Positions 16,594-58,683 of a DNA stretch of 64,000 nucleotides are shown here, one piece after another. Numbering within the stretch: the first letter of the stretch is position 1; each line of letters starts with the position of its first letter. The translations under genes and the position numbers were made by a program. Source of the stretch: an uncultured Gammaproteobacteria bacterium. Its GTDB lineage: Bacteria; Patescibacteriota; Patescibacteriia; Magasanikbacterales; GWA2-37-8. The notes below the pieces were generated by a model. The model searched no databases and was not told the DNA's origin. It was given only the letters and a program-made list of their open reading frames with translations. The DNA is taken from NCBI GenBank assembly GCA_964444705.1, contig CAYUHX010000003.1:3248-67247 (forward strand). Direction: 5' to 3'.

Positions 16594-16613
16594 AAAACAG
16601 ACACAATTGACAG

Positions 16614-16640
16614 AGCCCGCTACGGAGTACGTAGCGGGCT
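16614..16640. terminator. GC-rich hairpin terminator shared by htpX (+) and the cupin gene (-)
   Basis: Perfect 10-bp inverted repeat AGCCCGCTAC...GTAGCGGGCT; a T-run follows on the minus strand. Confidence 0.5.
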
Positions 16641-16663
16641 TGTGGCTTGGGCGGTACAGGAAC

Positions 16664-17104
16664 TCAGGTGCAGCAGCGAGCGAGGATGTCGCTCTCGCCG
16701 ACGCCCTTGGTGAGCGCATCCAGCTCAGGGCAGGCGTGCCAGTCCGGGCCTTGGGTTCGGCCGAACTTGACCGTGTGGATCGCCGCTCCCACAGGCAGGT
16801 AGACGTTGTGGGCGACGCCGATCTCGGTGGTCACGGTGTCTCCCTCCCGTAGGATCCGCCAGACCGGCTGCCCATCGCGCAGCTCCACGATCGCCATCCA
16901 GCCAGACTGGACGGCGTAGATCTCCTTCACTCCCAAGTGGAAGTGCGAGTTCTGCCAGGCACCCTCGTCACCAGCCTGAGTGCGGATGTAGCCACTTCCG
17001 TCCTGATGCATCCGGCGAAACCGGAACTCCTGGTTCGGCATCAGCTCATCCTTGATTGCAGCCATACCAAACTCCTGGGCTTCCTCGAGAGACAAATTCG
17101 CCAT
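16664..17104 (-). CDS. cupin-domain protein (high-GC island 1)
   Basis: 146-aa ORF at ~62% GC with two cupin motifs (SHFHLGVKEIYAVQSG; GDTVTTEIGVAHNV). A strong SD (GAAGGAGG) precedes the ATG. Confidence 0.65.
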   Translation of the reverse strand: MANLSLEEAQEFGMAAIKDELMPNQEFRFRRMHQDGSGYIRTQAGDEGAWQNSHFHLGVKEIYAVQSGWMAIVELRDGQPVWRILREGDTVTTEIGVAHNVYLPVGAAIHTVKFGRTQGPDWHACPELDALTKGVGESDILARCCT

Positions 17105-17308
17105 GAGGCCTCCTTCTTTCTGACGAGATGATTAGACTGTAAAATAGCCAAATTTTCGCTAAAATACAGTCCAATCATCCACGTTTTAAAGAGCTTTCTA
17201 TTCAAGAAATAACAAATATATATACCATAAAAAATAGGTTTTGTCAAGATAACAATACAATCAATTAGCTAACCTTAGCTAGTTTTAAAAATGACCAATT
17301 TTTTAATA

Positions 17309-17947
17309 TCAAAACTCCTTCCCTTGAACCATTCTTCCCCACTCATCAATTTCTCCCACAATCATTTGCGTAGGGACAAATTCTTCTTGAAACAACGGAA
17401 TGCTTATTTCTTTATTTTTTTCAACAAACTCGACTAAACGAAAATCTTCCGGTCGTAATTTTACCAAAGTGAGATGGGGTAAAAATTGATTACCCGACAG
17501 TTCGGTTCCGTAGGTGAGAATATGTGCACGGACCAATTCCGGCGTGGTCGGATCATCCACCATTTGCTTAAATTGACGCATCAGTCTTCCTTCGGTCAGT
17601 GGCATAATTTTGACCACGACCTCTTCGTGAATTTTTTGCAATTCAGGAGTATTCACTAGATTCCAAAATAGATTATTGCTGGAAGGATGGAAAAATAACT
17701 TTCTTTCAAAAACTAACGACACCAACGTGAAGGCATTTTTAATTTTTTCAACGATGTTATGTACGCTCTCTTTTTGGATAGAAGAAATCCGTGCTTGGAA
17801 TAAAGTAATATGTGGATAGTTTTCAGGACTTAATTCTAAAAAAGGCACTATCCCGATTTGTTTAAGTTGCTTGACTAGTTTAAATGAAGCCAAAGATACA
17901 CGCTCGGAAACGGTAAAAGCAACACCAATATTAACTTCTGAATTCAT
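17309..17947 (-). CDS. 2H phosphoesterase superfamily protein (LigT/2'-5' RNA ligase-like)
   Basis: Two H-x-T/S-x motifs each followed by hydrophobic residues (YPHITLFQ and LPHLTLVKL) in a 212-aa protein. Confidence 0.5.
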   Translation of the reverse strand: MNSEVNIGVAFTVSERVSLASFKLVKQLKQIGIVPFLELSPENYPHITLFQARISSIQKESVHNIVEKIKNAFTLVSLVFERKLFFHPSSNNLFWNLVNTPELQKIHEEVVVKIMPLTEGRLMRQFKQMVDDPTTPELVRAHILTYGTELSGNQFLPHLTLVKLRPEDFRLVEFVEKNKEISIPLFQEEFVPTQMIVGEIDEWGRMVQGKEF

Positions 17948-17950
17948 ACC

Positions 17951-19315
17951 CTATCCTTGGATCATTTCACTCACCTCTTTCACTTTTTCCTCCATGAGCA
18001 CTGACGAAATTGCTTCCAAATTAAGTCGTAATTTATTTTCCGTATTAGATGGCCGCACGTTGAACCACCATTCCGGCCACTCAAAACTAAGCCCATCAAA
18101 ATCGTAACGCAGATGGTCGGCATATTTCTCTCGCAAACGCGCGAGAGCAGCAGCTTTATCTTCGACATTAAAATTTATTTCTTCCCCATGATGATACCGA
18201 TAAAATGGCACCACAAAATCAGCCGCAGCTAATCCACTTGCCGAAAGTTCTTCTAAAAATTTAAGCACCATAATTTCGGGCGCTTCAAACGTGCCGTGCG
18301 GCAAACGTACAAAAAAATGACCAGATGATTCACCTGCAAACGGCATATTTTGTGCTCGCATCTGCTCTTTGATGAGCGAGTGCCCGACTTTAGTCACCAC
18401 TGGAATACCACCCGCTTCTTCTATCAAATCAATGGTGATTTTACCCGGGCGAATGTCGTAACCAATAGCAGCACCAGGATATTGACGCAAAAAAATGCGT
18501 GCCAAAATTCCCCGAATAATAGCTTGATCAATTGTTTTGCCTGTATTATCAACAAAAAATAATCGATCAGCATCACCATCAAAGGCAATGCCCAAATCTG
18601 CTTTGTTTTCACGGACTTTTTCTTGCAACACATGATTATTTTTATCTTTGAGCGGATCCGCTTCGTGATTCGGGAAACGACCATCAAGCTCAAAAAAGAG
18701 TGGAATGACTTTACCAGGCAAATGGCTGGCAAGAGCCGTCATAAGCGGGCCACCCATGCCATTGGCCGTATCTACTACAATGGTGAGTGGTTTAATCTTT
18801 GAAATATCGACTTGTGTGAGCGCAAAATCTATCTGTTCTTTAAGAACATCTGCGCGCACCGTCACTGTGCCCGGAACAGCGGCGGGAATAAATTCATTTT
18901 TTTCCGCCAAATCGCGAATAGACATAATACCCGTATCTCCACTAATTGGCACTCCAGCCGCCCGCACTAACTTGCACCCATTGTATTCAGCCGGGTTGTG
19001 CGAAGCAGAAATCTGAACTCCACCATCATAGCGAAATCGCCCCACGGCAAAATAAAAAGTCGGCGTTGATACGAGACCAACATCAATCACATTCACTCCC
19101 TGCTGCGTAATACCCTCGATCACCGCTTTAGCCAACGCTGGTGATGATATGCGCATATCTCTTCCCACCACAAGAGTGGGTGCAAGTTTTTTTAATTCCG
19201 CTTTCATGAATTCAGCAAATGCTTGACCGATCCGGTGTGCAATGTCTTCGTTCAACTCGGTGGGATAGATACCACGAATATCGTAGGCTTTAAAAATTGC
19301 ATGAGGAAATGACAT
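17951..19315 (-). CDS. phosphomannomutase/phosphoglucomutase
   Basis: Active-site Ser loop (GVQISASHNPAEYNG) and metal-binding loop (FDGDADR). The start is taken at the internal ATG (MSFPHAIFKAYDIRG). Confidence 0.85.
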   Translation of the reverse strand: MSFPHAIFKAYDIRGIYPTELNEDIAHRIGQAFAEFMKAELKKLAPTLVVGRDMRISSPALAKAVIEGITQQGVNVIDVGLVSTPTFYFAVGRFRYDGGVQISASHNPAEYNGCKLVRAAGVPISGDTGIMSIRDLAEKNEFIPAAVPGTVTVRADVLKEQIDFALTQVDISKIKPLTIVVDTANGMGGPLMTALASHLPGKVIPLFFELDGRFPNHEADPLKDKNNHVLQEKVRENKADLGIAFDGDADRLFFVDNTGKTIDQAIIRGILARIFLRQYPGAAIGYDIRPGKITIDLIEEAGGIPVVTKVGHSLIKEQMRAQNMPFAGESSGHFFVRLPHGTFEAPEIMVLKFLEELSASGLAAADFVVPFYRYHHGEEINFNVEDKAAALARLREKYADHLRYDFDGLSFEWPEWWFNVRPSNTENKLRLNLEAISSVLMEEKVKEVSEMIQG

Positions 19316-19326
19316 ATATAATTGCT

Positions 19327-19355
19327 TTGACTGATTGAGTAAAAAACGATATACT
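19327..19355 (+). promoter_or_regulatory. sigma70-like promoter upstream of clpC
   Basis: TTGACT, a 17-nt spacer, then TATACT. Confidence 0.4.
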
Positions 19356-19472
19356 ACCATTGTATTTTTAGTGTATAACGTCTTGCATAATCGGTAAAGT
19401 TTTGCCTGGCCTCGCACGTAAAAAGACACTAACACATCACGCACTTTTTCAACTATCTTCACCAAAGATCTT

Positions 19473-24786: not shown

Positions 24787-24788
24787 CT

Positions 24789-29964: not shown

Positions 29965-32163
29965 TTATTTTTTTTCATCAACCGGGAACCTATCATTCAC
30001 AATCTTTTTCAATTGGTCTCTGAGCCCGCCTGTTCGAGTAATTCCACTAAGAAGCATCGCTTCATTTAAAGGACCGCGAACCCCTCGTTCCGCGAGGGTA
30101 TCTAATATCATATTTAATTCTTTAATGCTCTCAATGGTTTTTGCTAACGAAACTGGAGCACCGTCACTGCCTTTTAAATCACCCTCTTTCCAAGAATTAA
30201 GTGTTTTGAGTATCTGTTCAATAGAGAGATTTTTAAAACCTTCTCTCTTCACAAAATCAAATGAATCATAACTACTCACTTCTCGACGTTTCATTTCTCG
30301 ATTGACTACATGCAATTTTCGAGCGGTTAATAGAGCGTCATGTAACTTGAAATCAACATCTTCACCCCGAGCCATTTTCGCTTCTATATCGTTAATTAGC
30401 CCCTCTACTAATTTTGGGGTGTAACGATCAGTACGAGCGTATTTTTTATACTCATTACCCAAACTCTCAGTCAGGGATTCCTTCATTCCATTTAAGGTCT
30501 CCCCATCCAGAGATAGAAGTGAAGTATCAGCATCAGGCAATGCAATCTTATCGAGTTTAGCAAACTCTCTTTGAAGAGTTGCTGCGGTTTGAGCTCGTTC
30601 ATTGTCTAATTTATGAATTTCTTTAATATTTTGCAAACCTTCAATCATGACCGCGCTTTTAACTCCTCTCTTTTTCTTTTCACGCGCAATCTGATTGTCA
30701 ATTTCTTCATCACTTTCTAGCGCATATTGGGCTAATCTTGGCTCTAATTTAATTTGTTCATCAAGCTCATCCTCACGCGGCGTCAGCTCGGGTAAAAGCT
30801 CTTCAAGATTAAGGCGCATTGCCTCAATTGAGTGTACATTAGCTGGACGAGCCGCTTCAGCTGCACGGGCTTCAGCCACAGCGCGCGGTTCACCAGCAGT
30901 GGCTCTCACACGCACTGAACCTGAAACACCAGCATGTTCGCCAGAAATACGGAAATTGGCAGTACGTGGAACGGTGTTGCCAGCAGCAGCTGTTGGTGTC
31001 TCAGCTGCAGACTGAACTGTTTCTTTTTTCTTAAAAAAACCAGTTACCGCTTTCCACGCTCCTTTGAAACCATTTCCAAAACGAGAAAGCAAACTTTGTT
31101 TTTTTATTTTTAATCCATCTAATAACGCCTTTGTTTCAGCATCTACCTGCGCTTGAGTAGCGTTTTCAATGGTGTGGGCAGCTTCGTCTAACTCTTCATC
31201 AATCGCCGCACTTTGTTTTTCAGCAACGTTTTCCATTTCCTTCATCGCTCCCTCCACCGCATATTCAGCATAATATTCTTCTGTTGCTTTGTCTGACAAA
31301 ATTTCGTTTACATCTCTCAAAGCTTGATCAAATTCAGCTCGATCAGCATCGTTTGATGCTTTTTCTTTAGCTGCCTCCACAGCTTTATCGGCAGCAATAA
31401 CTTCTTTACCATTATCAAGAGTATCTTTAAGCACGGCATCAAATTCAGCTTTATCTTCGGCTTTAGATTTTTTCATCTCCGCCAACTTAGCCCGCAATTC
31501 TGTCATGTTTTTTCTCGTCGCTTCTGGCGCCAGTCCTTTGCCGCCTGATTTAGCAAGATAGGCATCCACCTTTGCATCACGAGCAGCTTTTTCTTTAGCG
31601 GTATCTTTTTGTTCAGCCTTCAAATCTTCCGCACCAGCATTCGCTAACACATCTTTTGCATCCAAAATCTCACCCGTAGTTTGGTCAACGTATGAATCTT
31701 TCAATTTCACTTGACTCATCACATCGCCTTTTATACCACCGGCGGCAGAACGAATAGCCGCTTCTTGATTACGTACATCACGATGTTTTTCTTCGTAAAA
31801 TTTGTCTCTTTTTCGATCATACTTATCTGCTCGAGCGGCAGCTTCAGCTTCTGAAGCGGCGGCAGATTTTTTTGTTGGTTTATACGTCCCAAGATTGGCA
31901 CGAATTTTATCCATCCGAGCTTGTTGATCAGTACTAATGTCTAACACCTTTTTAACAGCTTTATTTATTAAACTCGTTTTTTCTTTTTGGCCCAGCTGAC
32001 CACCAGGCGCATTTTCTACTGCCACAATCATAGCATCGGTCACTTCGCTTTCCACCGAATAATCACCGTTTGCCCTTTTCAAAGCTTCTGGGCTATTCAA
32101 CAAAGACTCACGCACCGCGGCGTCGGTTGATTGTTTTCCCCCACGTTCTTGGAGCTGGGCCAT
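29965..32163 (-). CDS. large hypothetical Ala/Glu/Lys-rich protein (732 aa)
   Basis: A long ORF with coiled-coil-like low-complexity composition and no catalytic motif. A weak motif (LSRFGNGFKGAWKA) resembles the 2189-aa giant protein. Confidence 0.55.
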   Translation of the reverse strand: MAQLQERGGKQSTDAAVRESLLNSPEALKRANGDYSVESEVTDAMIVAVENAPGGQLGQKEKTSLINKAVKKVLDISTDQQARMDKIRANLGTYKPTKKSAAASEAEAAARADKYDRKRDKFYEEKHRDVRNQEAAIRSAAGGIKGDVMSQVKLKDSYVDQTTGEILDAKDVLANAGAEDLKAEQKDTAKEKAARDAKVDAYLAKSGGKGLAPEATRKNMTELRAKLAEMKKSKAEDKAEFDAVLKDTLDNGKEVIAADKAVEAAKEKASNDADRAEFDQALRDVNEILSDKATEEYYAEYAVEGAMKEMENVAEKQSAAIDEELDEAAHTIENATQAQVDAETKALLDGLKIKKQSLLSRFGNGFKGAWKAVTGFFKKKETVQSAAETPTAAAGNTVPRTANFRISGEHAGVSGSVRVRATAGEPRAVAEARAAEAARPANVHSIEAMRLNLEELLPELTPREDELDEQIKLEPRLAQYALESDEEIDNQIAREKKKRGVKSAVMIEGLQNIKEIHKLDNERAQTAATLQREFAKLDKIALPDADTSLLSLDGETLNGMKESLTESLGNEYKKYARTDRYTPKLVEGLINDIEAKMARGEDVDFKLHDALLTARKLHVVNREMKRREVSSYDSFDFVKREGFKNLSIEQILKTLNSWKEGDLKGSDGAPVSLAKTIESIKELNMILDTLAERGVRGPLNEAMLLSGITRTGGLRDQLKKIVNDRFPVDEKK

Positions 32164-32405: not shown

Positions 32406-32429
32406 TCAAAAAATTCCGCTAGAAAAAGC
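32401..32429. repeat. left copy of ~29-bp imperfect direct repeat flanking high-GC island 2
   Basis: GTCAATCAAAAAATTCCGCTAGAAAAAGC versus GTCAAGACTGAAAAGCCGCTAGAAATAGC at 34185-34213, sharing the CCGCTAGAAA core and GTCAA. Confidence 0.4.
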
Positions 32430-32434
32430 GGAAT
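32413..32434. terminator. hairpin terminator (ATTCCGCT-agaaaa-AGCGGAAT) followed by a T-run
   Basis: Perfect 8-bp stem with an A-run before and TTCTGATTTTTT after. Confidence 0.5.
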
Positions 32435-32679
32435 TTCTGATTTTTTAGACAGAAAAGAAGCTATAGAGATGCGGAAAAGAAATTGTGATGAAGAGAATCT
32501 CATCATGGTGCTTCCTGCTAAATTTTGGCAGAAAAAACCGTGATGGGACCGCGCTGCGAGGCAGACGCGGCTGTGCCCTACCGAAGCTCTGGATTCGCCG
32601 GAGAGGCGATGCGCTTGGAAGCGCAAGCTTGGGCCAGCCGCGTGCACAGAACTTGAGTGCGGCTGATGGGAAGGTAGGT

Positions 32680-33894
32680 CTAGCGACCGGCGCGGGGCTG
32701 CGGGGCGAAGAGCGGCTGGGTCCGCTGGAACACGTGGTTCCGGGTGACCGTGCCGTCGTTGGTGATGGTGGCCTTGACCGCGGCCTCGCGCTGGGCCTCG
32801 CGGTCCTCGTGGCGCTTGAACATCTTGTCCAGGGCGTCGCCGTCCGGGAGCTTGTTCAGGTCGGCCCGGGTGGCGAGCGGCGCCAGGTCGGCGCGGGTCG
32901 CCGCCTCGCCCACGTGCGCGCTCATGGCCTGCATCAGGGTCCTGCCCTTGCTGTCGGTGACGGCGTTGCGGATCGCCCGGGTGTCGCTCTCGATGCCGCG
33001 CACGTCCTCGTGGACGGCGGTGAGCTGCGAGCGGGTACCGCTCACGTTGCCGTTGATGAACAGCGTGCTCACCAGGGCGGCGGCGCCCAAGGCGCAGGCG
33101 ACGATGGCGAAGGTGCGGATGTTGGCGACGGTGGCGATGATCACGCCGAGGCGCCGGTCCAGGCGCTCCTCGGCGCCATAGAGGTGGTGCTGAGCGACCA
33201 GATCGTCCAGGTCCTTCCGGCGCGCCAGGGGCTCCAGGTCGTCGGCGGTGACGAGGCCGGCCTTGTTCAACCGGCCGACCACGGCCTGGGCGATCGCGTC
33301 GCCGCTGAGGATCTTGCCGGCCAGGGTCTCCGCCAGCTTGGCCATCTCGGCCTGGGTGGTGACCCCGTACTCCTTCAAGATCGCCTTCATCCGATCCGCG
33401 GTCGGCACCGATCCCATGTCGCGGTGGATCGCCTTGACCATCTCATCGGTGGTCAGCGGCGGGCGCGGCGGGGTCAGCGGCGGGCGCGAGTCGGGGCGGG
33501 ACTGGGTGCCGTTGCCGGTGCCGGGCAGGGTGGGGGTGCGGGACTGGGGCTGCGGGCCCGTGGGGCTCTTGGAGGGCTGCTGGGCGGGGGCGCCGTTGGC
33601 CGGGGCGGCCGCCTTGTCGCCGTTGGTGGCCGGGACGGCCACGGGCTGGGCCGGGGCGGCCGCGGCGGGCTGCTTGGTGCCGGCGGGGGCGCCGTTGGCC
33701 TGCGGGGCGACGTCCTGCTTCTCGGTCTTGCCGCCGCCCACATCCTCCATCGGGATGGGGATGCTGCCGCTGTCCCCGGGCTTGGCCTGGGGCTGCTGCG
33801 CCAACTGGAGGGCGGTGCCGATGGGCAGGGTGCCGGTGACGGGCGGCTGGCCAGCGGGCAGGACGGGGGACGAGGGACCAGTCTGGGTCTGCAT
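32680..33894 (-). CDS. Pro/Ala-rich membrane protein (high-GC island 2, ~70% GC)
   Basis: 404-aa ORF with SD AAGGAG upstream, a low-complexity P/A/Q-rich N-terminus, one TM (GVIIATVANIRTFAIVACALGAAALVSTLFI) and a helical C-terminal domain. Confidence 0.55.
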   Translation of the reverse strand: MQTQTGPSSPVLPAGQPPVTGTLPIGTALQLAQQPQAKPGDSGSIPIPMEDVGGGKTEKQDVAPQANGAPAGTKQPAAAAPAQPVAVPATNGDKAAAPANGAPAQQPSKSPTGPQPQSRTPTLPGTGNGTQSRPDSRPPLTPPRPPLTTDEMVKAIHRDMGSVPTADRMKAILKEYGVTTQAEMAKLAETLAGKILSGDAIAQAVVGRLNKAGLVTADDLEPLARRKDLDDLVAQHHLYGAEERLDRRLGVIIATVANIRTFAIVACALGAAALVSTLFINGNVSGTRSQLTAVHEDVRGIESDTRAIRNAVTDSKGRTLMQAMSAHVGEAATRADLAPLATRADLNKLPDGDALDKMFKRHEDREAQREAAVKATITNDGTVTRNHVFQRTQPLFAPQPRAGR

Positions 33895-34160
33895 TGCGGT
33901 ACTCCTTGATGTCTGCTGTTTTCGGTGAACTGGAAAAAAAACCCTTGCTCATGTGTGGAGTTCCCCCCACAAAGACAGGGTATTCGACGCTTGAACTATT
34001 CAAGCGACAAATACCCCATCTTTTGAGAGGAAGCTTTTTCCGCTCATAAACCTACCTTAAATTGTAAAGAACTTATTTCGGCCAAAAAAGACCATTTCTT
34101 TTTTGACTTTAGGCTGTTTAAACAGTGCTTTATTTCTTTCAATTGTTTAAACAACAAATC

Positions 34161-34189
34161 ATAATAGCACATTTTTGCCTTTTTGTCAA
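34161..34189 (-). promoter_or_regulatory. sigma70 promoter (minus strand) inside the right repeat copy, directed toward the island-2 gene
   Basis: On the minus strand: TTGACA, a 17-nt spacer, then TATTAT. Confidence 0.45.
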
Positions 34190-34253: not shown

Positions 34254-37200
34254 TTATTTTGTACTGAAGAGACCTGATCGTTCGATAAAATCGCGCGAAC
34301 TATCATACCTAAATGTACTCCCAGAGGTGGTTTTTACCACAATGGCACCAGTACCAATCTCACGATTAAAGACAAAATCTTTGTTATAAATAAGTGTCTT
34401 TTGTCCATCGACAGGATTAAGCGCCAATATCGCATGACTATCTTGTGCGGTGACCACAGGATGGTCGGCATCAAGACGATAATGATTCAATAATAATCTT
34501 ACTTCAGCACTTCCTTCTCCAGAAGGACGTAATAGCTCAAATACCTTATTCGGATCAATTGATTCATTTTTGATATCTTTCAGCACTTCTGCAGTTTGCA
34601 GCATTCTCTCGCTGCTTAACGACACTCTCCCACTTCCCTGCAGAACACCATTCATGTTTTGCTGCCAATCTCTAAGACGACTCAAAGCTTGAGCAGCCGG
34701 GTTTGATTCACGATCAGCTGATACAACTTTTACATTACCAAGATACCTCTCAATTTGTCGGCCGAAGGTACTTACCTGCGCCTCTACTTCATTTCGATTA
34801 CCGAGTTCACGAAATACCGCTGGAAGTTCTGCCTCCGCAGCCGTGCTTTCTACCACACTTGTTCTCGCTGCTGGCGCAGTTGATTTTGTTTCTAGTGCTG
34901 CCGCACCACGGGTGGCGGCCGGTTGCTCAGCGCCGACAGGCAATTTCCACGCTTCTTTTTCAGGGTCAAAACGAGTGATCACTTCTTCTCTTGCCACATC
35001 TTTTCCTTCTAAGACCACACGTACAGATCGACCATCTACCTGAATTTTCTCTGGATCTAAATTATCTAAGATAAATGGACCATTACTTTCGCGCGTATTG
35101 CCAATATAGACTTCAGCTTTTTTCTGCAAATCTTGCGGATCAACTTTCCATTGTGTTTCACGCACCTCACCGTGACCTGAGCCGCCAATCAAGGGGGCTT
35201 TACGCTCATCGAAGCCGAAGAAGCGCACGTTACCACGGAGTGAGAAATGATGCACTTCGTCTGCACCAAACTCGGCGTTGGCAATTTCGGTGGTGCCTTT
35301 GGCCTGAAGCAAGCGGCCAGTGGCATGAATAAGGGCCTGTTTTTCAGCCGCAGGCAACGTAGTCATTCTTTGATATTTGTCTACCAACTCTGGCAAAGAA
35401 TCACTACTTGGTTTTAAACCCGCTTCTTTCAAATACTCCAAGTGATGCCCACTAAAATTTTGGGATTTCAAGAAAGCCAACGCTTGTTCGGTGCCACCGT
35501 GAGCCAAGAGTTGTTCAAACGTAGCCTGCTTTACATCGCGCAGCACTTCGTATGGGGTATCAACTGCACTCTTAAACACATCACCGTGGAGCGATGAGGG
35601 GTGATTGCCCGAAGTACTCGCTTTCAAAATAGTCTGCAGTGATTCAGGGTTAGCGAGTGAAGGATATTTTTTAACAAGCGCAGCGAAAAAGACGCCAGTG
35701 TCTTTATCATCGATGATTTTTTCTCTTTCGCCAAAGGTCTTGAGTTCAGCAAACACATTTGATTCTTTTCTTCTTTCCGCAAGCGCACCAGCACCATCAG
35801 CAATTCGTCTTAAGGCTTCAGGCCCAGCTGCCTGCCCTGGTTCGGCCTTCGTAAGTAAACTACGGCCAAGTTCGGCAGCTCCTTGCTCCAAACTCACCGC
35901 CGCATTTTTCATCGCTCCAGGAATCCCGGCTAAACGCTCCGCGGTCTGCACCGTACCACCAACTGCATTATTATATAAAGCAGCCCCTAATTCTTTTTGT
36001 TCAAAGGCTCCAATCAATTTATCAATTGCTTGACTGGCGTGGGTATCAGTATTACCAAGCACAATGTCGGTAAGGCCCACTGCTCGTGCCATTGTTCCAA
36101 ACGCACTCACAAAGTCTGCGCCACGACGAACGACACCACCTTCTCCTTTGCGGCCTTTACCTCTAATCGCACTCCACCATTCTCCCAATGAGGTTAACAT
36201 TTCCTCTTTCACTGCTTTGGCACGATCGGCTTTTTCACCTTCTTGACCAGCACGATCAAGACCTTTGCTCACCATTTCAACGAGTGACATGGCACCATAC
36301 GCCGCGCCGCGCCACAAAGGCATACCAGCGAAGACCAAAGCCGTGTTTGCCACATCACGCACGCGAGCAATGGTTGAATTTTTACTATACAAAAATGCTT
36401 CGAGTGTTTTTTGCACTTTTTCATTACGCTGTTTAGTTTTATTTTCTGCCCCATCTTTATATTGATCAAACAGCACTTCTAAACGGCCAATAAGTTTTTC
36501 CTTCTCGGCAGGGTCAATAAAACGAGAATTTAAGATATTACCATTTACCCGAGTGAATCTTTCTTGCACACGAGCATCACTCTGTTCAATGGCCACATCC
36601 CGATTTTTCCAAAGTGCAAACACCTCTTCCATACCCCGAGCAATGAGCGCACGCTCAGCCTTGGCGTCTTGTCTTTCTTTAAAATAATTATAGATGTCGC
36701 CTTTTTTACGGATCGCTAATCCAAGATCGGCGAACGTCTTGAAACCAAACACTGAAAATACTGTGTCATACGTGGCTTTGCCGGCAGCCTTCCAAAAATC
36801 TTTGCTGGTAAATAATTCTTTTGTACCTTTCCAGAAACGACTAAGCACACCTTTCTTCTCTGCCGGCGGCACAACTCTTTCAATCCTGGTGGGCGAAGGC
36901 GCTGCCTCTGCCGCAGACAAATCCTCAACAAACGGCCTGTCAGCAGAACGATTAAAGGTTTCTGCTAATTCTGCCAAGGTTGAATCTTCCACAATAATCG
37001 ACGAAGCTGGCTTTGCACTCTCAGGTGACGAGGCAACAGACTCAACCATACCAGCCGCACCCATTCTCTCTCGATCGGGCGCAGCTACGGCGGCACTGAG
37101 CGCAGCCAATTCTTGAGCGGCCCCAGCAGCCGGTGTTACTATTTCTTTTGTCACGGCAGGAGCAGCTTCTTTTGGTTTTGCCGCTGGTTTTTCGGCACCA

Positions 37201-41425: not shown

Positions 41426-41510
41426 TGGTGCCGCCGGTCGGAATCGAACCGACATGCCGTGAGGCACACGATTTTGAGTCGTGCGTGTCTACCAATTCCA
41501 CCACGGCGGC
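41426..41510 (-). tRNA. tRNA-Leu (anticodon CAA), CCA encoded
   Basis: Cloverleaf GCCGCCG.../...CGGCGGC-A-CCA, anticodon loop CUCAAAA, long variable arm and T-loop TTCGATT. Confidence 0.85.
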
Positions 41511-41765: not shown

Positions 41766-41831
41766 CACACGATTTTGAGCCTGCCTGTCGGCAGACAGGT
41801 CGTGCGTGTCTACCAATTCCACCACGGCGGC
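41766..41831 (-). pseudogene. partial duplicate of the tRNA-Leu 5' half carrying a 20-nt GC-rich palindromic insert
   Basis: GCCGCCGTGGTGGAATTGGTAGACACGCACGA is identical to the intact tRNA. CCTGTCTGCCGACAGGCAGG is then inserted before the anticodon loop. CTCAAAATCGTGTG follows, after which the sequence diverges into the GIY-YIG start. Confidence 0.45.
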
Positions 41832-45144: not shown

Positions 45145-45173
45145 TTGACAAAACCACTTTTCTATGGTATAAT
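45145..45173 (+). promoter_or_regulatory. near-consensus sigma70 promoter in the rel/lipoprotein intergenic region
   Basis: TTGACA, a 17-nt spacer, then TGgTATAAT. Confidence 0.5.
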
Positions 45174-45211
45174 GCGCGTGTAATACAAAGGACAAACCTT
45201 AACGCCAACAC

Positions 45212-45239
45212 ATAACTCGTGCATAACTGCACGAGTTAT
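45212..45239 (+). ncRNA. candidate small RNA or attenuator: strong hairpin ~35 nt downstream of the promoter
   Basis: Perfect 12-bp inverted repeat ATAACTCGTGCA-taac-TGCACGAGTTAT followed by GCTGTTTT. No ORF lies between the promoter and the hairpin. Confidence 0.3.
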
Positions 45240-45290
45240 GCTGTTTTGAAGGGAATCTTTAAAATCTGCATTTTTTTCTTGATTTTAACT

Positions 45291-45319
45291 GATCTATTTG
45301 CTATACTCGCACACGTAGG
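45291..45319 (+). promoter_or_regulatory. second candidate promoter (TTGATT-17-TATACT)
   Basis: The hexamers are spaced 17 nt apart; the downstream region is structured and non-coding. Confidence 0.3.
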
Positions 45320-45484
45320 CTGGTAAAGGGCCTTTGTATTACCTTTGGCATCAAGGCTTTCTTTTACCCCTACATTCAGAAACTCTGTTTTAAAATAGCA
45401 GGGTTTTTTATTTCTTCTGTTTTTTACTGAATTAAACTTACTTTATTTCTTAAAAAATAAACTTGTATTTCCTACGTACTATCC

Positions 45485-45514
45485 TTGACGCCGTCTTAAT
45501 TTACTGCGTATACT
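45485..45514 (+). promoter_or_regulatory. promoter for the high-GC lipoprotein gene (TTGACG-18-TATACT)
   Basis: The hexamers lie directly upstream of SD GGGAGGAG and the ATG. Confidence 0.4.
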
Positions 45515-45541
45515 AACACTCCCTATTGAGGGAGGAGATTG

Positions 45542-45991
45542 ATGCAACGAGTTACAATTTTTCCAAAGCACTCTTCCTGGCTGGCGTTGCTGGCCGCAGT
45601 CCACATCGGTGGCTGCGATCTGGCACCACCGGCTGAGACGCCTCGCACACCAAAGATCGAGATCTACGGCGAAGCTGACCGCGCCTGCGCCCACACGCCG
45701 GCCGGCTCCAGCCTGCTCGAATGCACCAACTACAGCGGCCAGCTCCTCTGGGGAGCAGAAGCCGCCTGCATCATCAGCATCACCCGTGACGCGACAGCGA
45801 GCGTCTGCACGGTGGCCTGCACCGCGCAGGGATCGCCCAACCACGTGGTGGCGCTCGGCGACCTCACCTTCCTGACACTGGTCGACGGCGTCCCAACCCA
45901 GGTGGGAACTGAAGACCGTTCTGCCACTATGGCGGGCACGACCTGGTGCAACGCAGCGCCCAAGTCGCAACCGCGGACCGGCCAGAAGTAG
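45542..45991 (+). CDS. putative lipoprotein, Cys-rich (high-GC island 3)
   Basis: Signal peptide with a lipobox-like HIGGC, ~65% GC and a strong SD. Confidence 0.55.
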   Translation: MQRVTIFPKHSSWLALLAAVHIGGCDLAPPAETPRTPKIEIYGEADRACAHTPAGSSLLECTNYSGQLLWGAEAACIISITRDATASVCTVACTAQGSPNHVVALGDLTFLTLVDGVPTQVGTEDRSATMAGTTWCNAAPKSQPRTGQK

Positions 45992-46083
45992 CCACGCCGT
46001 CTTCCTCGTCGTCTCCTCGCCGGCCATGCAACCCTGCGGTTGTGTGGCCGGCTCGACTTTCACTTTATTTCTGTTTCAAAAAA

Positions 46084-46112
46084 CCCCAGGTTATGAACCT
46101 GAGGCTTTTTTA
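46084..46112. terminator. bidirectional terminator between the lipoprotein gene (+) and the membrane protein gene (-)
   Basis: Hairpin CAGGTT-atg-AACCTG with extended pairing, flanked by an A-run and a T-run. Confidence 0.5.
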
Positions 46113-49710: not shown

Positions 49711-50793
49711 TTATTTTCTCACATATTTCATGCCGCCTACATTTTTCACCTGCTGTTTGAGTTCAAGCAGCATAAGCGTGCTGTTGACGGTGGTGCTGTC
49801 GAGGCGGGTAAATTTGGTGAGTTCGTCGATATGCACTGGTTCAGTACTTAAGGCCGAGAGAAGCAATTCTTCGGTGGGAGAACAATTAAACGGTGTAGTT
49901 TTCGCTACTTCTTTTTGAGTAGTATGAAGGTGGAGCGCTTCTAAAATATCTTCAGCCTTAGTGACGAGTAGCGCTCCTTTTTTAAGGAGATTATTATTGC
50001 CCACGCCGGAGAGCGAGGTGATAGGATGTGGCACTGCACAGACTTCACGGTTATAATCAAGTGCTGCGCGAGCCGTGATGAGTGCGCCAGATTCTTCTGG
50101 AGCTTCTATCACCAAGGTTCCTAAAGTGAGACCGGCGATGATGCGATTGCGCGCGGGAAAAGAGTATTGTGTCGGTGCAAAATCAGGCGGATATTCAGAC
50201 ACAAGCGCCCCACCTTCAGAAGCGATGCGTTCGGCCAGCGATTCGTGCTCCCGCGGATAGACACTTTTTTTTGCATTACCACTCCCAAGCACGGCAATAG
50301 TGCGTCCCTGGCAACGTAGAGTAGTTTCGTGCGCCAATCCATCAATGCCAAGTGCGAGGCCACTCACAATGGTAATTCCCTGACTCACAAGTTCAGTCAC
50401 CAATTGCTCGGTAATTTGTTTTCCATAACTCGTGGCGCGACGCGTACCCACTACGGCAAGTGGCGAAGAAGTGCACAACACCGAAAGATCACCCCGAACG
50501 AATATTGTTTGTGGTGGATCAGAAATTTCTGCAAGTAATCGCGGATAACGGGCGTCACCCCACGAAATAACGGTAATATTTTCTTTACGTAGTCGCTCTA
50601 AAATTTTTTCTGGATCGGTTTGATCACGCCAACGCACAAATTCATCAGCAATGGCTGGTTCAAACCCAGACTCTACCAACTCACCCAATTCTCCCTGCCA
50701 CATTTTTTCGGAAGTACCCATTTTCGTCAACGCTTTTTTGTAGCGATGATAGGTCATTTTAGGAAAATGGGCGATGACCGCGGCGTAATCCAT
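49711..50793 (-). CDS. dprA: DNA processing protein DprA (Smf)
   Basis: Rossmann-like DprA core (GLALGIDGLAHETTL...GTLVIEAPEESGALITA); start taken at the internal ATG to avoid overlap with pth. Confidence 0.85.
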   Translation of the reverse strand: MDYAAVIAHFPKMTYHRYKKALTKMGTSEKMWQGELGELVESGFEPAIADEFVRWRDQTDPEKILERLRKENITVISWGDARYPRLLAEISDPPQTIFVRGDLSVLCTSSPLAVVGTRRATSYGKQITEQLVTELVSQGITIVSGLALGIDGLAHETTLRCQGRTIAVLGSGNAKKSVYPREHESLAERIASEGGALVSEYPPDFAPTQYSFPARNRIIAGLTLGTLVIEAPEESGALITARAALDYNREVCAVPHPITSLSGVGNNNLLKKGALLVTKAEDILEALHLHTTQKEVAKTTPFNCSPTEELLLSALSTEPVHIDELTKFTRLDSTTVNSTLMLLELKQQVKNVGGMKYVRK

Positions 50794-50800
50794 ACAACGA

Positions 50801-51337
50801 CTACTGAAGAATAAACCGTGCCACTTCAGCCAACACATGACCGACGGTGGAATGAAGTAGACGCTCTTCTTCGGGAGTAAATTTTCCTAACACAAAACCA
50901 GCGGTATCTTTAATATCTTCCGGACGCTCGGGAGCAACACCCACGCGTATACGCATAAAATCTTGCGTACCAAGTTCTTCTATAATTGAACGCACGCCAT
51001 TATGCCCGGCCGGACCACGATTGGACTGTATTCGATAGGTACCAAGCGGAATATCTTTTTCATCATGAATGACGAGAAGTTCGGCGGGAGTGAGTTTGTA
51101 AAAGGCCAATGCGTCTCGCACCGCTCGACCAGAATTGTTCATGAACGTGGTGGGTTTTAAGAGCAGCGCTCTTTTTTGTTGCACCAGTACACGACTTACC
51201 TCAGCGGCTAATTTATGTTCTCGACTCCAGACGCCATGCTCCTCAGCGCTCAATGCATCAACCACTACAAAACCTGCGTTGTGGCGCGTGCGCTCATATT
51301 CTTTTCCCGGGTTCCCAAGACCAACGATCAATTTCAT
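50801..51337 (-). CDS. pth: peptidyl-tRNA hydrolase
   Basis: MKLIVGLGNPGKEYERTRHNAGF signature. Confidence 0.9.
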   Translation of the reverse strand: MKLIVGLGNPGKEYERTRHNAGFVVVDALSAEEHGVWSREHKLAAEVSRVLVQQKRALLLKPTTFMNNSGRAVRDALAFYKLTPAELLVIHDEKDIPLGTYRIQSNRGPAGHNGVRSIIEELGTQDFMRIRVGVAPERPEDIKDTAGFVLGKFTPEEERLLHSTVGHVLAEVARFILQ

Positions 51338-54468: not shown

Positions 54469-54491
54469 CTTCACTTGGTTTTTTTCTTCTT

Positions 54492-54998
54492 ATGCCCAAA
54501 GATCTCATCATTGAAGACGCCCCTATCGGTGACGTGCAATATGAATGGGTTTTTAATGAGTATACCCAATTTGAACGCAGCCGCCGATGGTATATCGTCA
54601 TGGGTATTTTTGGTACACTTCTCGTGGCAACCGGTGTTCTTACGGGCAATTACATGTTTGCTTTCATCATCATTTTGGCTGGTGTGATTCTTTTCTTGCA
54701 AGAAATGCAAACTCCCCCCGAAGTATACTTTGCCATTACAACTACCGGCATCATCCTCGGCACCAAATTCTTTCGCTATCGCGAACTCGACCGTTTTTGG
54801 ATTCTCTACACCTCTGAAGAAGTACGTAGCCTTTATTTTATCCTGAACAATAATTTAAAAAATCGCCTGCAAATTCCTCTACTCGACTATGATCCGGCCC
54901 CAATTCGTGATTTCCTCAAACAATATGTTCTTGAAGATTTAGACGAAGAGGACGAACCATTGTCTGAACGTTTTTCTCGCGCCATGCGCTTACAATAG
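54492..54998 (+). CDS. hypothetical membrane protein
   Basis: 168-aa ORF with 2-3 TM helices, lying between two tRNA genes. Confidence 0.45.
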   Translation: MPKDLIIEDAPIGDVQYEWVFNEYTQFERSRRWYIVMGIFGTLLVATGVLTGNYMFAFIIILAGVILFLQEMQTPPEVYFAITTTGIILGTKFFRYRELDRFWILYTSEEVRSLYFILNNNLKNRLQIPLLDYDPAPIRDFLKQYVLEDLDEEDEPLSERFSRAMRLQ

Positions 54999-55095: not shown

Positions 55096-55170
55096 GCACC
55101 CGTCGTTCAATGGATAGGACATTGGCCTGCGAAGCCGAAAATTTAGGTTCGACTCCTAACGGGTGCACCA
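55096..55170 (+). tRNA. tRNA-Arg (anticodon GCG), CCA encoded
   Basis: Acceptor GCACCCG/CGGGTGC, anticodon stem TTGGC/GCCGA with loop CTGCGAA, and T-loop TTCGACT. Confidence 0.65.
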
Positions 55171-55174
55171 ACAA

Positions 55175-55203
55175 AATAACAGCTCAATGAGCTGTTATTT
55201 TTA
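55175..55203. terminator. hairpin terminator after tRNA-Arg
   Basis: 11-bp inverted repeat AATAACAGCTC...GAGCTGTTATT followed by T-rich sequence. Confidence 0.55.
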
Positions 55204-55213
55204 TACGACGTTT

Positions 55214-56047: not shown

Positions 56048-56128
56048 AGAAAAATGGTGTGCACAATGTTTTATCTCTTCAGAGATTATAGTATAGTACA
56101 AAATCATTACAATTTCTAATGATTAATT

Positions 56129-56374
56129 ATGACTACCCCACATAAAACTATTCAAGTTGGTGACATCTACGAACATTACAAACGCCCACATCGCTATGAA
56201 ATAGTGGCCATTGCCCACGACCACGAGTCGCTAGCTGAAGTGGTGGTGTATAAAGGATTATATACCCACCCCGAGCTGGGCGAAAATGCATTGTGGGTGC
56301 GGCCAAAAACGATGTTTTTAGAAGAGGTAGAATTTGAAGGAAAAAAAATGCAGCGATTTAAAAGAATTGGCTAA
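56129..56374 (+). CDS. small DUF1653-like protein
   Basis: 81-aa ORF following the pattern YEHYKRPHRYEIVAIAHDHESLAEVVVYKGLYTHPELGENALWVRP typical of DUF1653 proteins. Confidence 0.45.
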   Translation: MTTPHKTIQVGDIYEHYKRPHRYEIVAIAHDHESLAEVVVYKGLYTHPELGENALWVRPKTMFLEEVEFEGKKMQRFKRIG

Positions 56375-56390
56375 AAAATTACCTTTAAAA

Positions 56391-56419
56391 AACTCACCTG
56401 GATTTCAAGTGAGTTTTTT
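56391..56419. terminator. hairpin terminator after the DUF1653 gene
   Basis: AACTCAC...GTGAGTT stem flanked by an A-run and T6. Confidence 0.5.
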
Positions 56420-56633
56420 ATTGCGCAACCATTTAGCATCACTCAATTCAATCACTTCTCGTCGAAGAAAAAATTCTCCCTTTGGCTCGGATAAAGATTC
56501 CGGACAAAAGGGCGAACGACGAGGGGTGGCGGAAGAACAATGCGGCGGCGCCCCCAGCAGTGCGATGCTGCTGGCCGGAGGCGCGACTGCGCGCTGAGTT
56601 GGGATGGTCCAGAGTCCGCGCCGTGCCCGTGGG

Positions 56634-57221
56634 TTACGGGGTGGGGGCGGCCGGCGCCACCTGCTGCGCGATGATCCAGTCCACCGTCAAGAAACTGCCG
56701 CCACCGCGCTTCAGGATGGGCGCGTACTTATCATAGTACGCCTGCGTGATACGCACCGCGGCCTGCCCCCCCAGCTGCACGTAGGTCGGGGACGGCCAGA
56801 GGGTCGGATACTCGGAGGGCGAAAGGTAGCTGTCGCACGTCTGGCCGACCATCCCGAACTTCGCGCAGGGGGCGGGTCCGTGGGCGGTGACCTGGACCAG
56901 GAAGACGGTGGACGAACTGAGAGGGAAGCTGGCCTTGTCCGACGGCGTGAAGTAGCAGGCGGTGACCGACGTCGTCCGCTGCTCATTCAGCCCCTTCGCC
57001 TCGTACTGGCAGGACCACTCGCCGTCCTTGGTGGGGCCGGGGGTGACGATGAACTGGACCAGGCCATCGTACTGCTGCAGAGAGGGGGGGAAGACGAAGT
57101 CGAACTCGTATGGGGTGACGACGTCGCCCTTTCCACCGCAGCCGGCGCTACCCATGGCGAGGGCCAGGGCGATGCCGAGGACGAAGGAACGACCCTTGTT
57201 CTGATTCTTGCTGTCACGCAT
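56634..57221 (-). CDS. putative lipoprotein (high-GC island 4)
   Basis: ~65% GC, SD AGGAGA with the ATG at 57221, a signal peptide plus a Cys after ...LAMGSAGC, and several further Cys. Confidence 0.55.
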   Translation of the reverse strand: MRDSKNQNKGRSFVLGIALALAMGSAGCGGKGDVVTPYEFDFVFPPSLQQYDGLVQFIVTPGPTKDGEWSCQYEAKGLNEQRTTSVTACYFTPSDKASFPLSSSTVFLVQVTAHGPAPCAKFGMVGQTCDSYLSPSEYPTLWPSPTYVQLGGQAAVRITQAYYDKYAPILKRGGGSFLTVDWIIAQQVAPAAPTP

Positions 57222-57511
57222 CGGAAACACTCTCCTGTAGATTATTCATGCTTCCCTCTCAGCCAACCGAAGCCGAGGGAACAATGGCAAGGACCTAAAA
57301 ACATCTCTGTCTCCAGGCGGTTAAAGAAGCACTTTTTTAAAAAGAAATTCTTCAGCCGCCTGGAAAAAATTGGAAAAGATCAAATGTTATTACCCTTAAA
57401 CCAAAGATAACAACAAATCAAACTAACATACTGTTTAGTAGCTGTCAAGCTATTGTCGAGATAGTTTTATTCTATTTTGTTTATTCTTAGCCAAATATTA
57501 TTTTTTACCCC

Positions 57512-57540
57512 TTGACAAATGGCAAAAAATGTGCTAACTT
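57512..57540 (+). promoter_or_regulatory. candidate promoter (TTGACA-17-TAACTT) in the low-GC spacer between the two divergent high-GC lipoprotein genes
   Basis: The -35 hexamer is consensus but the -10 is weak. Confidence 0.3.
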
Positions 57541-57717
57541 AGTTTTAATTTAGTTGTATCTCTCTTTGAGAAGCAATTTGCTCATTACCAAATTATTTCG
57601 GGAAAAATATACAGCTCCAGTGAGTTGGGGAGAATAGAGTCGTGCCAAATAAAACAGTTTTGGATTCTCTTTTCTCTCCAGCTATCTCTACCATCTGCAA
57701 GTCCCCGCGCCAACAAG

Positions 57718-57732
57718 GGCGGGGCAGACAGG
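57718..57732. repeat. left 15-bp inverted repeat (GGCGGGGCAGACAGG) flanking island 5
   Basis: Matches the reverse complement of 58973-58987 (GGCAGGGCAGACAGG) at 14 of 15 positions. Confidence 0.4.
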
Positions 57733-57739
57733 AGCACCC

Positions 57740-58546
57740 ATGTGTCTTTCCATCAATGGTTCTGTGCGTCGTTTCTTCGTCATCACCGGCCTCCTCCTGA
57801 CCGCCGCGGCCAGCGGCTGCGGCATCTGGCCGGAGGAGCACTACGCGACCGGCGATTCGACCGTGTACGAGCCGGTCATGAAGGCGCCGGACGCGCCCAT
57901 GCCCCCGGCGGCGACCTGCTACGACCTGGTCTTCGAGAAGAACGCGTCGTCCAAGGGCGCCAGCGCCCAGGGCTACTACTGGTTCGATGCCAACACCTCC
58001 CACACCCAGTTCGCGGCCGGGTCCTTCAGCCTGCTGAACCCGACCGGGACCGGGCAGTACTGCAACGTCACCATCCCGGCCCCCGACGGCCACCTGGCGA
58101 GCCTGTCCATCCCGCGAATGGCTGCCAACTTCCGCCACACCACCGCACAGTCGGGCAAGCTCATCACGATCATCGACTACAACATCGACCTCCCCCAGGA
58201 GCCGCGGGTGGAGTCCCTGCAGATCGTGGTCTTCGCCGACCAGCTGGCGCCCAACGACACGTGCGCCGGCGAGCGGACCCGCCTGGCCTTCAACGGCCTC
58301 GCCATCACGGCTCGCACCTGCTCGATCCGCTCGGCCAACGGCAGCAGCACGACCCCGGCGGTGACCCAGTTCACCATCAACGAGGTGAACGGCGGCTGCC
58401 TCCTGCAGCAGCGGACCGGCAACGGCAGCCCGGCCATCTACACCCAGGCAGCCGCGGAGGTTGAGGCTGACAGCGCCGGGGCCGACTGGAGCTTCCAGTC
58501 CACCCAGCTGGCCAGCGACGACCTGGTCGAGTGCTCCGCGCAGTAG
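57740..58546 (+). CDS. putative lipoprotein (high-GC island 5)
   Basis: ~66% GC, SD CAGGAG, a signal peptide ending AAASGC and Cys-containing, Gly/Thr/Ala-rich mature protein. Confidence 0.55.
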   Translation: MCLSINGSVRRFFVITGLLLTAAASGCGIWPEEHYATGDSTVYEPVMKAPDAPMPPAATCYDLVFEKNASSKGASAQGYYWFDANTSHTQFAAGSFSLLNPTGTGQYCNVTIPAPDGHLASLSIPRMAANFRHTTAQSGKLITIIDYNIDLPQEPRVESLQIVVFADQLAPNDTCAGERTRLAFNGLAITARTCSIRSANGSSTTPAVTQFTINEVNGGCLLQQRTGNGSPAIYTQAAAEVEADSAGADWSFQSTQLASDDLVECSAQ

Positions 58547-58683
58547 GCGCCGCGCCACTTTTTCCCGACCCCACCGGAGATCATCCGCCGCCGCTCCCCC
58601 TCGCATGAGGGGTCGAGCGCTCGCTGCCCGTCTCCTCCTGCTTTCTGTTAATAATTATTGTTAACAAAAAGTAGGACACAAAA

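Follow-up and report, generated by a model that had tools for sequence, protein, structure and literature searches.

Phage morons are independent transcription units of deviant GC content that lie between phage genes and often encode a membrane protein or lipoprotein, and in Borrelia, vls-type loci of surface lipoproteins stand out from a low-GC genome by their anomalously high GC content and diversify through gene conversion. Orphan genes of bacteria tend to be rich in AT. Here we analyze a 64,000-nt stretch of a low-GC chromosome (positions 3,248 to 67,247 of contig CAYUHX010000003.1, GenBank assembly GCA_964444705.1; hereafter the window) in which five sharply bounded islands, or islets, of 65-73% GC hold one gene each, and whose host is, as judged from its genes, a Patescibacteria (Candidate Phyla Radiation, CPR) bacterium. 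Published reports, among them PMC12455944, present CPR bacteria as obligate episymbionts and treat both their partners and the way in which hosts are recognized as largely unknown. For Patescibacteria, PMC12455944 documents horizontal gene transfer, of islands as well as of genes transferred individually, and PMC7427843 reports acquired genes in Saccharibacteria. Sharp single-gene, high-GC orphan envelope islets are not described in the accessible portions of these two reports, and literature searches returned nothing specific. Horizontally acquired islets are known in principle, but the combination of orphan status with very high GC content, the density in a core region, the envelope bias and the persistence of the high-GC state are unusual. 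Our favored reading, which we hold at a probability of roughly 0.58, is that each of the five islands is a real insertion of one gene from a foreign source of about 65-75% GC, acquired horizontally from unsampled high-GC bacteria.

Five high-GC islands and their genes

Both a 300-nt composition profile and an unbiased Viterbi segmentation with two GC states, run over the whole window, delimited exactly five high-GC segments against a background of 43.4% GC:

16615-17039, island 1, 65.2% GC, z = 5.1
32538-33899, island 2, 72.6% GC, z = 6.8
45576-46055, island 3, 67.5% GC
56510-57195, island 4, 67.8% GC, z = 5.7
57703-58641, island 5, 68.7% GC, z = 5.9

Relative to 585 background 300-nt windows (mean 0.435, standard deviation 0.043, maximum 0.563), the islands stand 5.1-6.8 standard deviations above the background mean, and jointly they make up 6.1% of the window. 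The segmentation agrees to within a few tens of bases with the five islands proposed by an initial annotation made from the letters of the window alone. That annotation had also assigned to each island one gene with a canonical Shine-Dalgarno (SD) sequence, in keeping with our finding that every island contains a single open reading frame (ORF), in the frame forming the GC-richest codon phase, with an SD sequence 5-10 nt ahead of the start. The five genes, termed W1 to W5 in the order of the islands, are as follows (GC3, GC content at third codon positions):

16664-17104, minus strand: W1, 146-aa cytoplasmic protein, predicted small cupin; GC3 0.80; SD sequence AAGGAGG at about 17109-17115
32680-33894, minus strand: W2, 404-aa orphan membrane protein; GC3 0.97
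45539-45991, plus strand: W3, 150-aa Cys-rich predicted lipoprotein, lipobox HIGGC; GC3 0.76
56634-57230, minus strand: W4, 198-aa orphan predicted lipoprotein, ...AMGSAGC; GC3 0.88
57740-58546, plus strand: W5, 268-aa orphan predicted lipoprotein, lipobox ASGC, 8 Cys; GC3 0.94

The likely start of W3 is the ATG at 45542, downstream of the SD sequence GGGAGGAG, and W4 probably begins with the ATG at 57221, with AGGAGA 10 nt ahead of it; the SD sequence of W5, AGGAG, sits within the high-GC block. A per-gene comparison of GC3, suggested as a check by the same annotation, separates the two classes completely: the island genes reach 0.76-0.97, above the values at first (GC1) and second (GC2) codon positions in all five, versus 0.28-0.45 in 44 of the 44 remaining window ORFs. 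This gap places the anomaly at the codon level, so that it is not an amino acid effect alone. A preference for C-ending codons is common to all five genes. The islands are written in a foreign codon style, like that of an organism of about 70% GC, and their base composition and codon usage lie clearly off those of the host genome, as in horizontally acquired islets. Naming a donor through codon usage was dropped, as the preferences of the five islets are generic for high GC content and not diagnostic.

The initial annotation had called four of the five products envelope or secreted proteins, which agrees with predicted lipoprotein signals in W3 to W5, a transmembrane segment in W2 and the lack of an export signal in W1. 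The putative signal peptides of W3 (...LLAAVHIGGC), W4 (...ALALAMGSAGC) and W5 (...LLLTAAASGC) combine a basic n-region, a hydrophobic core and a lipobox with the invariant Cys, the lipobox being canonical in W3 and W5. The N-terminal ~150 aa of W2 are rich in Pro/Ala/Gln; the remainder comprises a helical region, a single strong transmembrane segment (approximately residues 249-282) and a C-terminal domain. For W1, the match to Pfam Cupin_2 is weak (19 bits, under the cut-off of 27.2), and membership is thus weak at the sequence level. An AlphaFold2 (AF2) model built on an alignment of 16 sequences is an all-beta barrel with a predicted local distance difference test score (pLDDT) of 93.5, for which Foldseek gave a probability of 1.0 to quercetinase, oxalate decarboxylase and KdgF; H54, H56, E61 and H110 are among the invariant columns of the alignment. 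The double-stranded beta-helix and the His/Glu positions of the metal motif place W1 in the cupin superfamily, probably as a metal-type cupin enzyme. Neither W2 to W5 nor five islet proteins from related genomes (see below) matched a Pfam or NCBIfam family, and all-versus-all BLASTP revealed no kinship among the ten islet proteins. The single-sequence AF2 model of W5 (pLDDT 33) was unusable.

Transcriptional frame of the islands

In gene orientation, the high-GC block begins 15-55 nt ahead of the start codon and includes the strong SD sequence; the exception is island 3, where the first ~35 nt of the W3 coding sequence are low in GC and the block starts inside the gene. It ends 70-150 nt past the stop codon, just beyond a GC-rich hairpin. 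The DNA outside the blocks has 29-37% GC and carries host-type promoters. Signals at the islands are:

16592-16640, minus strand: GC-rich hairpin with a 10-bp stem (16614-16640) and a T-run (16592-16597), closing island 1; read from the sequence
17219-17247, minus strand: promoter-like site of W1, TTGACA-17-TATATA with TG; seen by eye, under the rule of the scan
32411-32436, usable from both strands: hairpin terminator (10 bp, AT-flanked) past the end of island 2; from the scan
32538-32679, minus strand: 3' tail of island 2, ~140 nt long and high in GC, containing short hairpins rich in GC
34161-34189, minus strand: host-type promoter of W2, TTGACA-17-TATTAT with TG, 11/12
45485-45514, plus strand: host-type promoter directly upstream of W3, TTGACG-18-TATACT, 10/12
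46087-46111, plus strand: terminator of host type behind island 3, CAGGTTATGAACCTG and then a T-run; placed at 46087-46101 by the scan
57497-57540, both strands: low-GC spacer between islands 4 and 5 with overlapping divergent promoter-like sites
58685-58713, plus strand: terminator hairpin of host type with AT flanks, behind island 5, ATCCTCTC-attgatt-GAGAGGAT and then a T-run; seen by eye, unlisted by the scan

The promoter-like site of W1 belongs to the promoter repeat families D2/I1. A leader of about 267 nt, low in GC, follows the W2 promoter, and the promoter regions of W2 and W5 are 85% alike over 26 nt (repeat I3). In the spacer between islands 4 and 5, a candidate promoter on the minus strand (57525-57497, TTGCCA-17-AATAAT, 10/12) faces W4, and a site on the plus strand (TTGACA-17-TAACTT with TG, seen by eye under the scan's rule) faces W5. 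Low-GC, host-like signals ahead of islands 3 and 5 and a divergent promoter region between islands 4 and 5 had both been noted in the initial annotation, in agreement with these sites. What has been acquired is a promoterless unit with its own SD sequence, one ORF and a GC-rich hairpin tail, and such units are set in low-GC frames, in intergenic gaps of the conserved core genes, where a TTGACA/TATAAT promoter of host type lies upstream and, in most cases, a host-type terminator follows. Alignment of eight islet 3' tails gave no shared motif (mean column identity 32%), the hairpins being individually different.

Variable gaps in related genomes

For comparison, 163 loci of other assemblies were fetched (L-numbers). 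The nearest relatives of the window TopA are 75-76% identical and derive from Patescibacteria metagenome-assembled genomes (MAGs), and more distant TopA loci are labeled Kerfeld-, Falkow-, Buchanan- and Komeilibacteria, in agreement with the CPR-like host suspected before. Five of these loci (L002, L003, L006-L008) are deposited as 'uncultured Gammaproteobacteria', probably an automated mislabel, as they are CPR-like by genes and synteny.

The same segmentation applied to relatives yielded four islets in L002, all with export signals (GC3 0.59-0.74, with GC1 and GC2 raised too), and one in L007, encoding a 176-aa protein (GC3 0.91); the distant L040 holds a 195-aa lipoprotein in an islet of 71% GC. 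The gene order is conserved across L001-L009, running from the homologue of a 168-aa ORF (54492-54998) through Der, Pth, DprA, TopA, RelA and ParB to ParA, and against this constant order the gaps can be compared. Between TopA and RelA, L001 has merely 183 bp, L002 only a membrane-protein gene, L003 that gene plus an 824-aa gene, L007 the 176-aa islet, and the window the membrane-protein gene plus W3; the L007 islet protein and W3 thus occupy the same gap, their sequences being unrelated. Between ParA and a phosphoesterase gene, there is a lipoprotein gene of 67% GC in L002, an ORF of ~50% GC in L003, and 133 nt without a gene in L007. Across the 163 loci, each non-cupin islet protein matches its own locus only. 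Gaps between core genes vary in content among relatives, and in our reading the cargo turns over quickly.

Whether related genomes share the islands had been posed as a check by the initial annotation, which took orthologous high-GC genes at the same loci in all relatives as the mark of old, stable genes. Relatives with a 75% identical TopA lack islands 3-5 or hold a different gene in their place, and the distribution of these islands over the gaps of L001-L008 is patchy. By that measure, these three are not old shared genes. Units of foreign composition, mostly encoding orphan envelope proteins, recur at variable gaps of the CPR chromosome.

Two structured elements were noticed in these gaps. 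A hairpin of ~60 nt lies downstream of two different cargo genes in L002 (17242-17300) and L003 (16660-16720); it folds with -29 kcal/mol in L002 (z = -3.3), and its inner stems differ by compensatory changes between the two. It is missing from the empty L007 site and from everywhere else in the fetched loci, and we rejected it as a cassette site for being confined to one locus. In L007, a perfect 20-bp inverted repeat, GGCGTGATTATGACCTAGTA...TACTAGGTCATAATCACGCC (~12370-12420), lies between TopA and the islet, immediately upstream of the latter.

Homologue searches and antisense shadow ORFs

A search of 5.8 billion protein clusters turned up no homologue of W2 or W5, W4 gave zero matches in 1.84 billion representative proteins at full HMMER sensitivity, and W5 found none in 241 million metagenome records in a search independent of gene calling. 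None of W2 to W5 has relatives in IMG/VR viral contigs, and for W3, where the search covered viral contigs, plasmids and phages, these three sets were without a match.

The long antisense Gly/Arg/Pro ORFs over the islands, which the initial annotation regarded as spurious, are present and are shadows of the real genes. Two of them have replaced the genes in the public record, as established by exact look-up:

56604-57410, plus strand: antisense shadow ORF of island 4 (P0017), held publicly in place of W4
57593-58606, minus strand: antisense shadow ORF of island 5 (P0018), held publicly in place of W5

Both P0017 and P0018 come from the source contig (77.6 kb, NCBI), whereas W4 and W5 themselves are missing from the public collection; the large protein searches recovered not even the query proteins. 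Protein databases are therefore partly blind to islets in low-GC genomes, and islets annotated on the wrong strand would escape protein-based surveys wherever they are called like islands 4 and 5. Homologues from true high-GC genomes would still show in the same databases; none appeared.

The cupin islet family

The cupin is the one islet family that can be traced, and comparison of its sequences points to fast protein evolution and allele replacement. It is found in genomes of 24% to 70% GC, many of them high in GC, so that high-GC sources exist in principle, and nearly always the GC content of the gene tracks that of its flanks. Positive outliers from this rule are the window (+0.20), L081/L083 (+0.20 and +0.27), L084 (+0.13), L164/L165 (+0.11) and, mildly, L099; the gene contexts of L081/L083, L084 and L164/L165 look like those of streamlined small genomes. 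One W1 homologue forms a sharp islet in another small genome of 42% GC, and its junctions are identical in a JGI, a Logan and two ENA assemblies. In ~350 kb of control low-GC loci, fetched via the cupin family, ~60% GC is reached only by that islet and by the first 1.2 kb of L085. Island cupin copies tend to group in a neighbor-joining tree with weak support (roughly 40% of bootstraps), and W1 and the L084 cupin are reciprocal best hits at only 56%; a single origin of the island cupins is a tentative idea at most.

Two strains, L081 and L083, diverge by 0.5% over 3.2 kb of flanks versus 60 differing sites within 340 nt of the islet. Here, 27 of 160 residues are changed, the differences distribute over codon positions 1:2:3 as 15:14:31, both alleles have a GC3 of about 0.85, and both borders of the tract fall within the gene. 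A diverged allele seems to have replaced the original one here, in contrast to random hypermutation; hypermutation of the type caused by diversity-generating retroelements was dismissed as well, the substitutions being enriched at third codon positions and not adenine-specific. The 754-kb contig of L081 that carries the cupin islet also contains 2.2 kb without a called gene (8025-10287), at a GC content of about 0.48-0.54 versus a background of 0.42.

Origin of the islands

Composition, the promoterless unit inside a resident frame, and the patchy gaps are consistent with horizontal acquisition. According to the route we envisage, DNA from high-GC neighbors, possibly the partner of the episymbiont, would enter by uptake and recombination, for which DprA, RadA, RecG and RecO are candidates encoded in the window. 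Deletion might then trim insertions down to the expressed gene. Retention would follow from the products, most of which are envelope proteins with a possible role in the contact between cells: three predicted lipoproteins and one membrane protein, the fifth product being the putative metal-type cupin enzyme. Amelioration would be slow, high GC3 outlasting genus- to family-level divergence.

Several observations weigh against the favored reading. The islets showed neither target-site duplications nor recombination sites, which leaves the mechanism of entry to inference. For none of the islands did a donor sequence turn up, and the best match of W1 is 58% identical (best identities 53-58%). As W2 and W5 have a GC3 of 0.94-0.97, the donor copy should still be nearly identical, which means that the donor must be unsampled. 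An actinobacterial partner, which the initial annotation had offered as a possible donor, is left unproven in our searches, as is any other specific donor, since homologues of W2, W4 and W5 are missing altogether and the cupin has a best match of 58%. A further objection comes from the cupin islets of L081 and L164/L165. These share the order KhpA, variable gene, cupin, TrmD, and since leader, tail and TrmD junction are homologous, they go back to one ancestral insertion. Protein identities between the two are 88% for KhpA, 62% for TrmD and 47% for the cupin, and identities at fourfold sites are 0.60, 0.34 and 0.50, respectively, with 0.31 (KhpA) and 0.23 (TrmD) expected at saturation. GC3 of the cupin is nevertheless 0.81 and 0.83, as opposed to 0.36-0.45 in the flanks. 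A rough estimate for neutral amelioration gives about 0.60-0.76, and the excess hints at a possible additional force maintaining GC.

This bears on the statement of the initial annotation that the islands are recent acquisitions, as discrete cassettes, with no amelioration. Its compositional half, foreign composition in discrete single-gene units, is upheld; recency and the cassette in a mechanistic sense are not. With GC3 values of 0.81-0.83 at 62% TrmD identity, the lack of amelioration fails as a general sign of recency: an orthologous islet that keeps a GC3 near 0.82 across diverged genomes makes the equation of un-ameliorated with recent unsafe. At best, GC3 provides a relative age rank, with W2 and W5 youngest and W1 and W3 oldest, and no proof of recency. 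As to cassettes, the 3' tails have no common motif, and among the window ORFs scanned with Pfam there was no integrase, transposase or relaxase. The cupin islet cautions against dating transfers by a lack of amelioration, and cupin islets offer a natural system in which to measure amelioration or to detect a force opposing it.

The same data feed an alternative that we consider unlikely yet worth taking seriously, namely that the islands are not recent arrivals but long-resident accessory genes whose high synonymous GC content is actively maintained within CPR genomes, either by selection on synonymous sites or mRNA, or by recurrent conversion from homologous high-GC DNA, external or in silent copies elsewhere in the genome. 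The L081 and L164/L165 cupins are in line with this idea, being orthologous, conserved at leader, tail and TrmD junction and co-diverged with their flanks at a GC3 that has stayed high; in addition, the island copies of the cupin mostly lie close to saturation at synonymous sites and still hold a GC3 of about 0.8. Likewise, a conversion donor limited to the gene would give a tract that ends inside the gene, as between L081 and L083, and the grouping of island cupins in the tree, weakly supported as it is, would fit as well. On the other hand, amelioration does proceed, as the GC3 of the L099 cupin (0.54) and of the L002 islets indicates, and GC3 lies above the neutral estimate by only a modest margin for a gene of about 150 codons. 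Moreover, the relatives are without orthologues of W2 to W5 and carry unrelated cargo in the TopA-RelA gap, and the window contains no paralogous silent copies.

Horizontal acquisition could also be carried further. In a bolder version, which strikes us as rather doubtful, the CPR lineage would keep promoter/terminator slots that are refilled with SD-ORF-hairpin units from a high-GC partner, re-import or conversion would hold the GC content, and a rapidly changing repertoire would consist of orphan surface lipoproteins recognizing or mimicking the partner. If this were true, the codon signature of the islets would report the identity of an otherwise unknown host. Apart from this version, the islets are concrete candidates for the interface between CPR bacteria and their partners, and their codon signature may be a clue to the partner.

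There is little chance that the islands represent cargo of a phage or mobile element (moron-like), or integron-type cassettes at secondary sites. One gene of deviant composition between promoter and terminator does reproduce the layout of a moron, and an ORF that lacks a promoter and carries a structured tail of 70-150 nt at its 3' end recalls cassette geometry; but the neighbors (DnaE, PheST, ClpB, RecG, TopA, RelA, ParAB and AsnRS) are core genes, none of them from phage, and the lack of mobility enzymes, of a common motif in the eight tails and of relatives in IMG/VR, phage or plasmid collections speaks against it, as does the restriction of the L002/L003 hairpin to one locus. Even less credit is due to an assembly or binning chimera in which pieces of some high-GC genome were joined into a contig of the CPR bacterium. 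The contig does stem from metagenome assembly, and exact look-ups found no exact counterpart of window proteins in other assemblies; a chimera, though, would need five exits and re-entries, each within an intergenic gap and with SD sequence, host promoter and terminator in place. In support of the initial annotation, which had argued against random chimeric assembly, islets recur in independent MAGs of relatives, and the cupin islet is placed identically to the base in four assemblies from different pipelines, so misassembly of the window islets appears very unlikely. Finally, next to no weight attaches to the notion that the high GC content stems from Pro/Ala/Gly-rich composition or a wrong reading frame: Pro/Gly/Ala-rich stretches occur in W2 and several L002 proteins, and the L002 islets have raised GC1 and GC2, but GC3 exceeds both in every window islet, the chosen frames are the GC-richest phase, three of them open with predicted lipoprotein signal peptides, and that of W1 leads to a confident cupin fold.

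Host chromosome and neighboring genes

The window consists almost entirely of core genes, among them those for PRPP synthetase, DnaE, PheST, RseP, ClpB, RadA, RecG, ParAB, RelA, TopA, DprA, Der, AsnRS and RecO. One of them provides context for a possible route of DNA entry, and for context only:

49711-50838, minus strand: DprA, transformation-specific recombination mediator (Pfam DNA_processg_A, E = 2.5e-75)

Three large ORFs of host composition lack a Pfam domain (34254-40823, 2189 aa; 29965-32163, 732 aa; 10019-11521, 500 aa); two of them flank island 2, and they may encode lineage-specific surface proteins. The first 33 nt of tRNA-Leu(CAA) (41426-41510) are repeated exactly at 41799-41831, 321 nt away and just upstream of ParA, which could be an integration/excision scar or a tRNA fragment.

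In the gap between RelA and island 3, the plus strand contains two mini transcription units without Rfam hits, which are candidate small RNAs. The unit at 45145-45240 has a perfect 12/12 promoter followed by a terminator with a 13-bp stem, and that at 45279-45408 has another promoter and terminator and measures about 100 nt; part of the latter resembles, by eye, the reverse complement of sequence just 3' of the L007 islet. A block of 265-290 nt upstream of RelA is 93% conserved across L002, L003 and L007 and may equal the mini-unit element.

Just downstream of AsnRS, the region 58760-59054 (minus strand) is non-coding, has 51% GC and folds with -119 kcal/mol (z = -5.2 versus shuffled sequences), ending in a stem plus U-run. 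Rfam gave no match above its threshold, codon periodicity is lacking, and the stretch was not found next to AsnRS in L004. We considered and discarded a decayed sixth island, as the missing codon periodicity and the strong RNA fold make a structured RNA more likely, and it may be an undescribed one. Within it, a 22-nt GC-rich palindromic piece (CTGCCCTGCCTACCGGCAGGCAGG-like, ~58982-59003) has an exact match near ParA in L008 (9394-9415) and may be a small dispersed repeat.

Comparison with known systems

Borrelia vls loci resemble the islands in that high-GC lipoprotein genes lie in a low-GC genome and in that one islet family has a local divergent tract. They differ in that the window has no silent cassettes, islet paralogues or repeats, and in that the divergent tract belongs to the cupin, not to a lipoprotein. 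A diversity-generating retroelement finds no support either, with no reverse transcriptase among the window ORFs scanned and no adenine-specific pattern in the L081/L083 differences. With integron cassettes, the islands share the promoterless ORF, the short 5' leader, a structured 3' element of 60-150 nt and the use of a resident promoter; unlike cassettes, they are scattered singly and form no array, the eight 3' tails contain no common attC-like motif, and neither IntI nor an array was found among the scanned window ORFs. Phage morons are similar in presenting one gene framed by promoter and terminator with a composition unlike that of its neighbors. The islets, in contrast, are flanked by chromosomal housekeeping genes and have no match in viral collections, and only the ORF unit is foreign, promoter and terminator being host-type.

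Closest are horizontally acquired genomic islets, set apart by unusual base composition; for Patescibacteria, PMC12455944 describes genes transferred one by one. The transfers that it detects are mostly CPR-to-CPR, by methods that need a recovered donor, and its accessible portion does not describe the pattern of the window. The window departs from such islets in that its cargo consists of very-high-GC orphans for which no donor was found, in that the window ORFs scanned include no mobility genes, and in that five islets fall within 64 kb of a core region. What they have in common is the sharp composition break at gene boundaries, together with a patchy presence, variable gaps between conserved genes and an accessory, envelope-related cargo.

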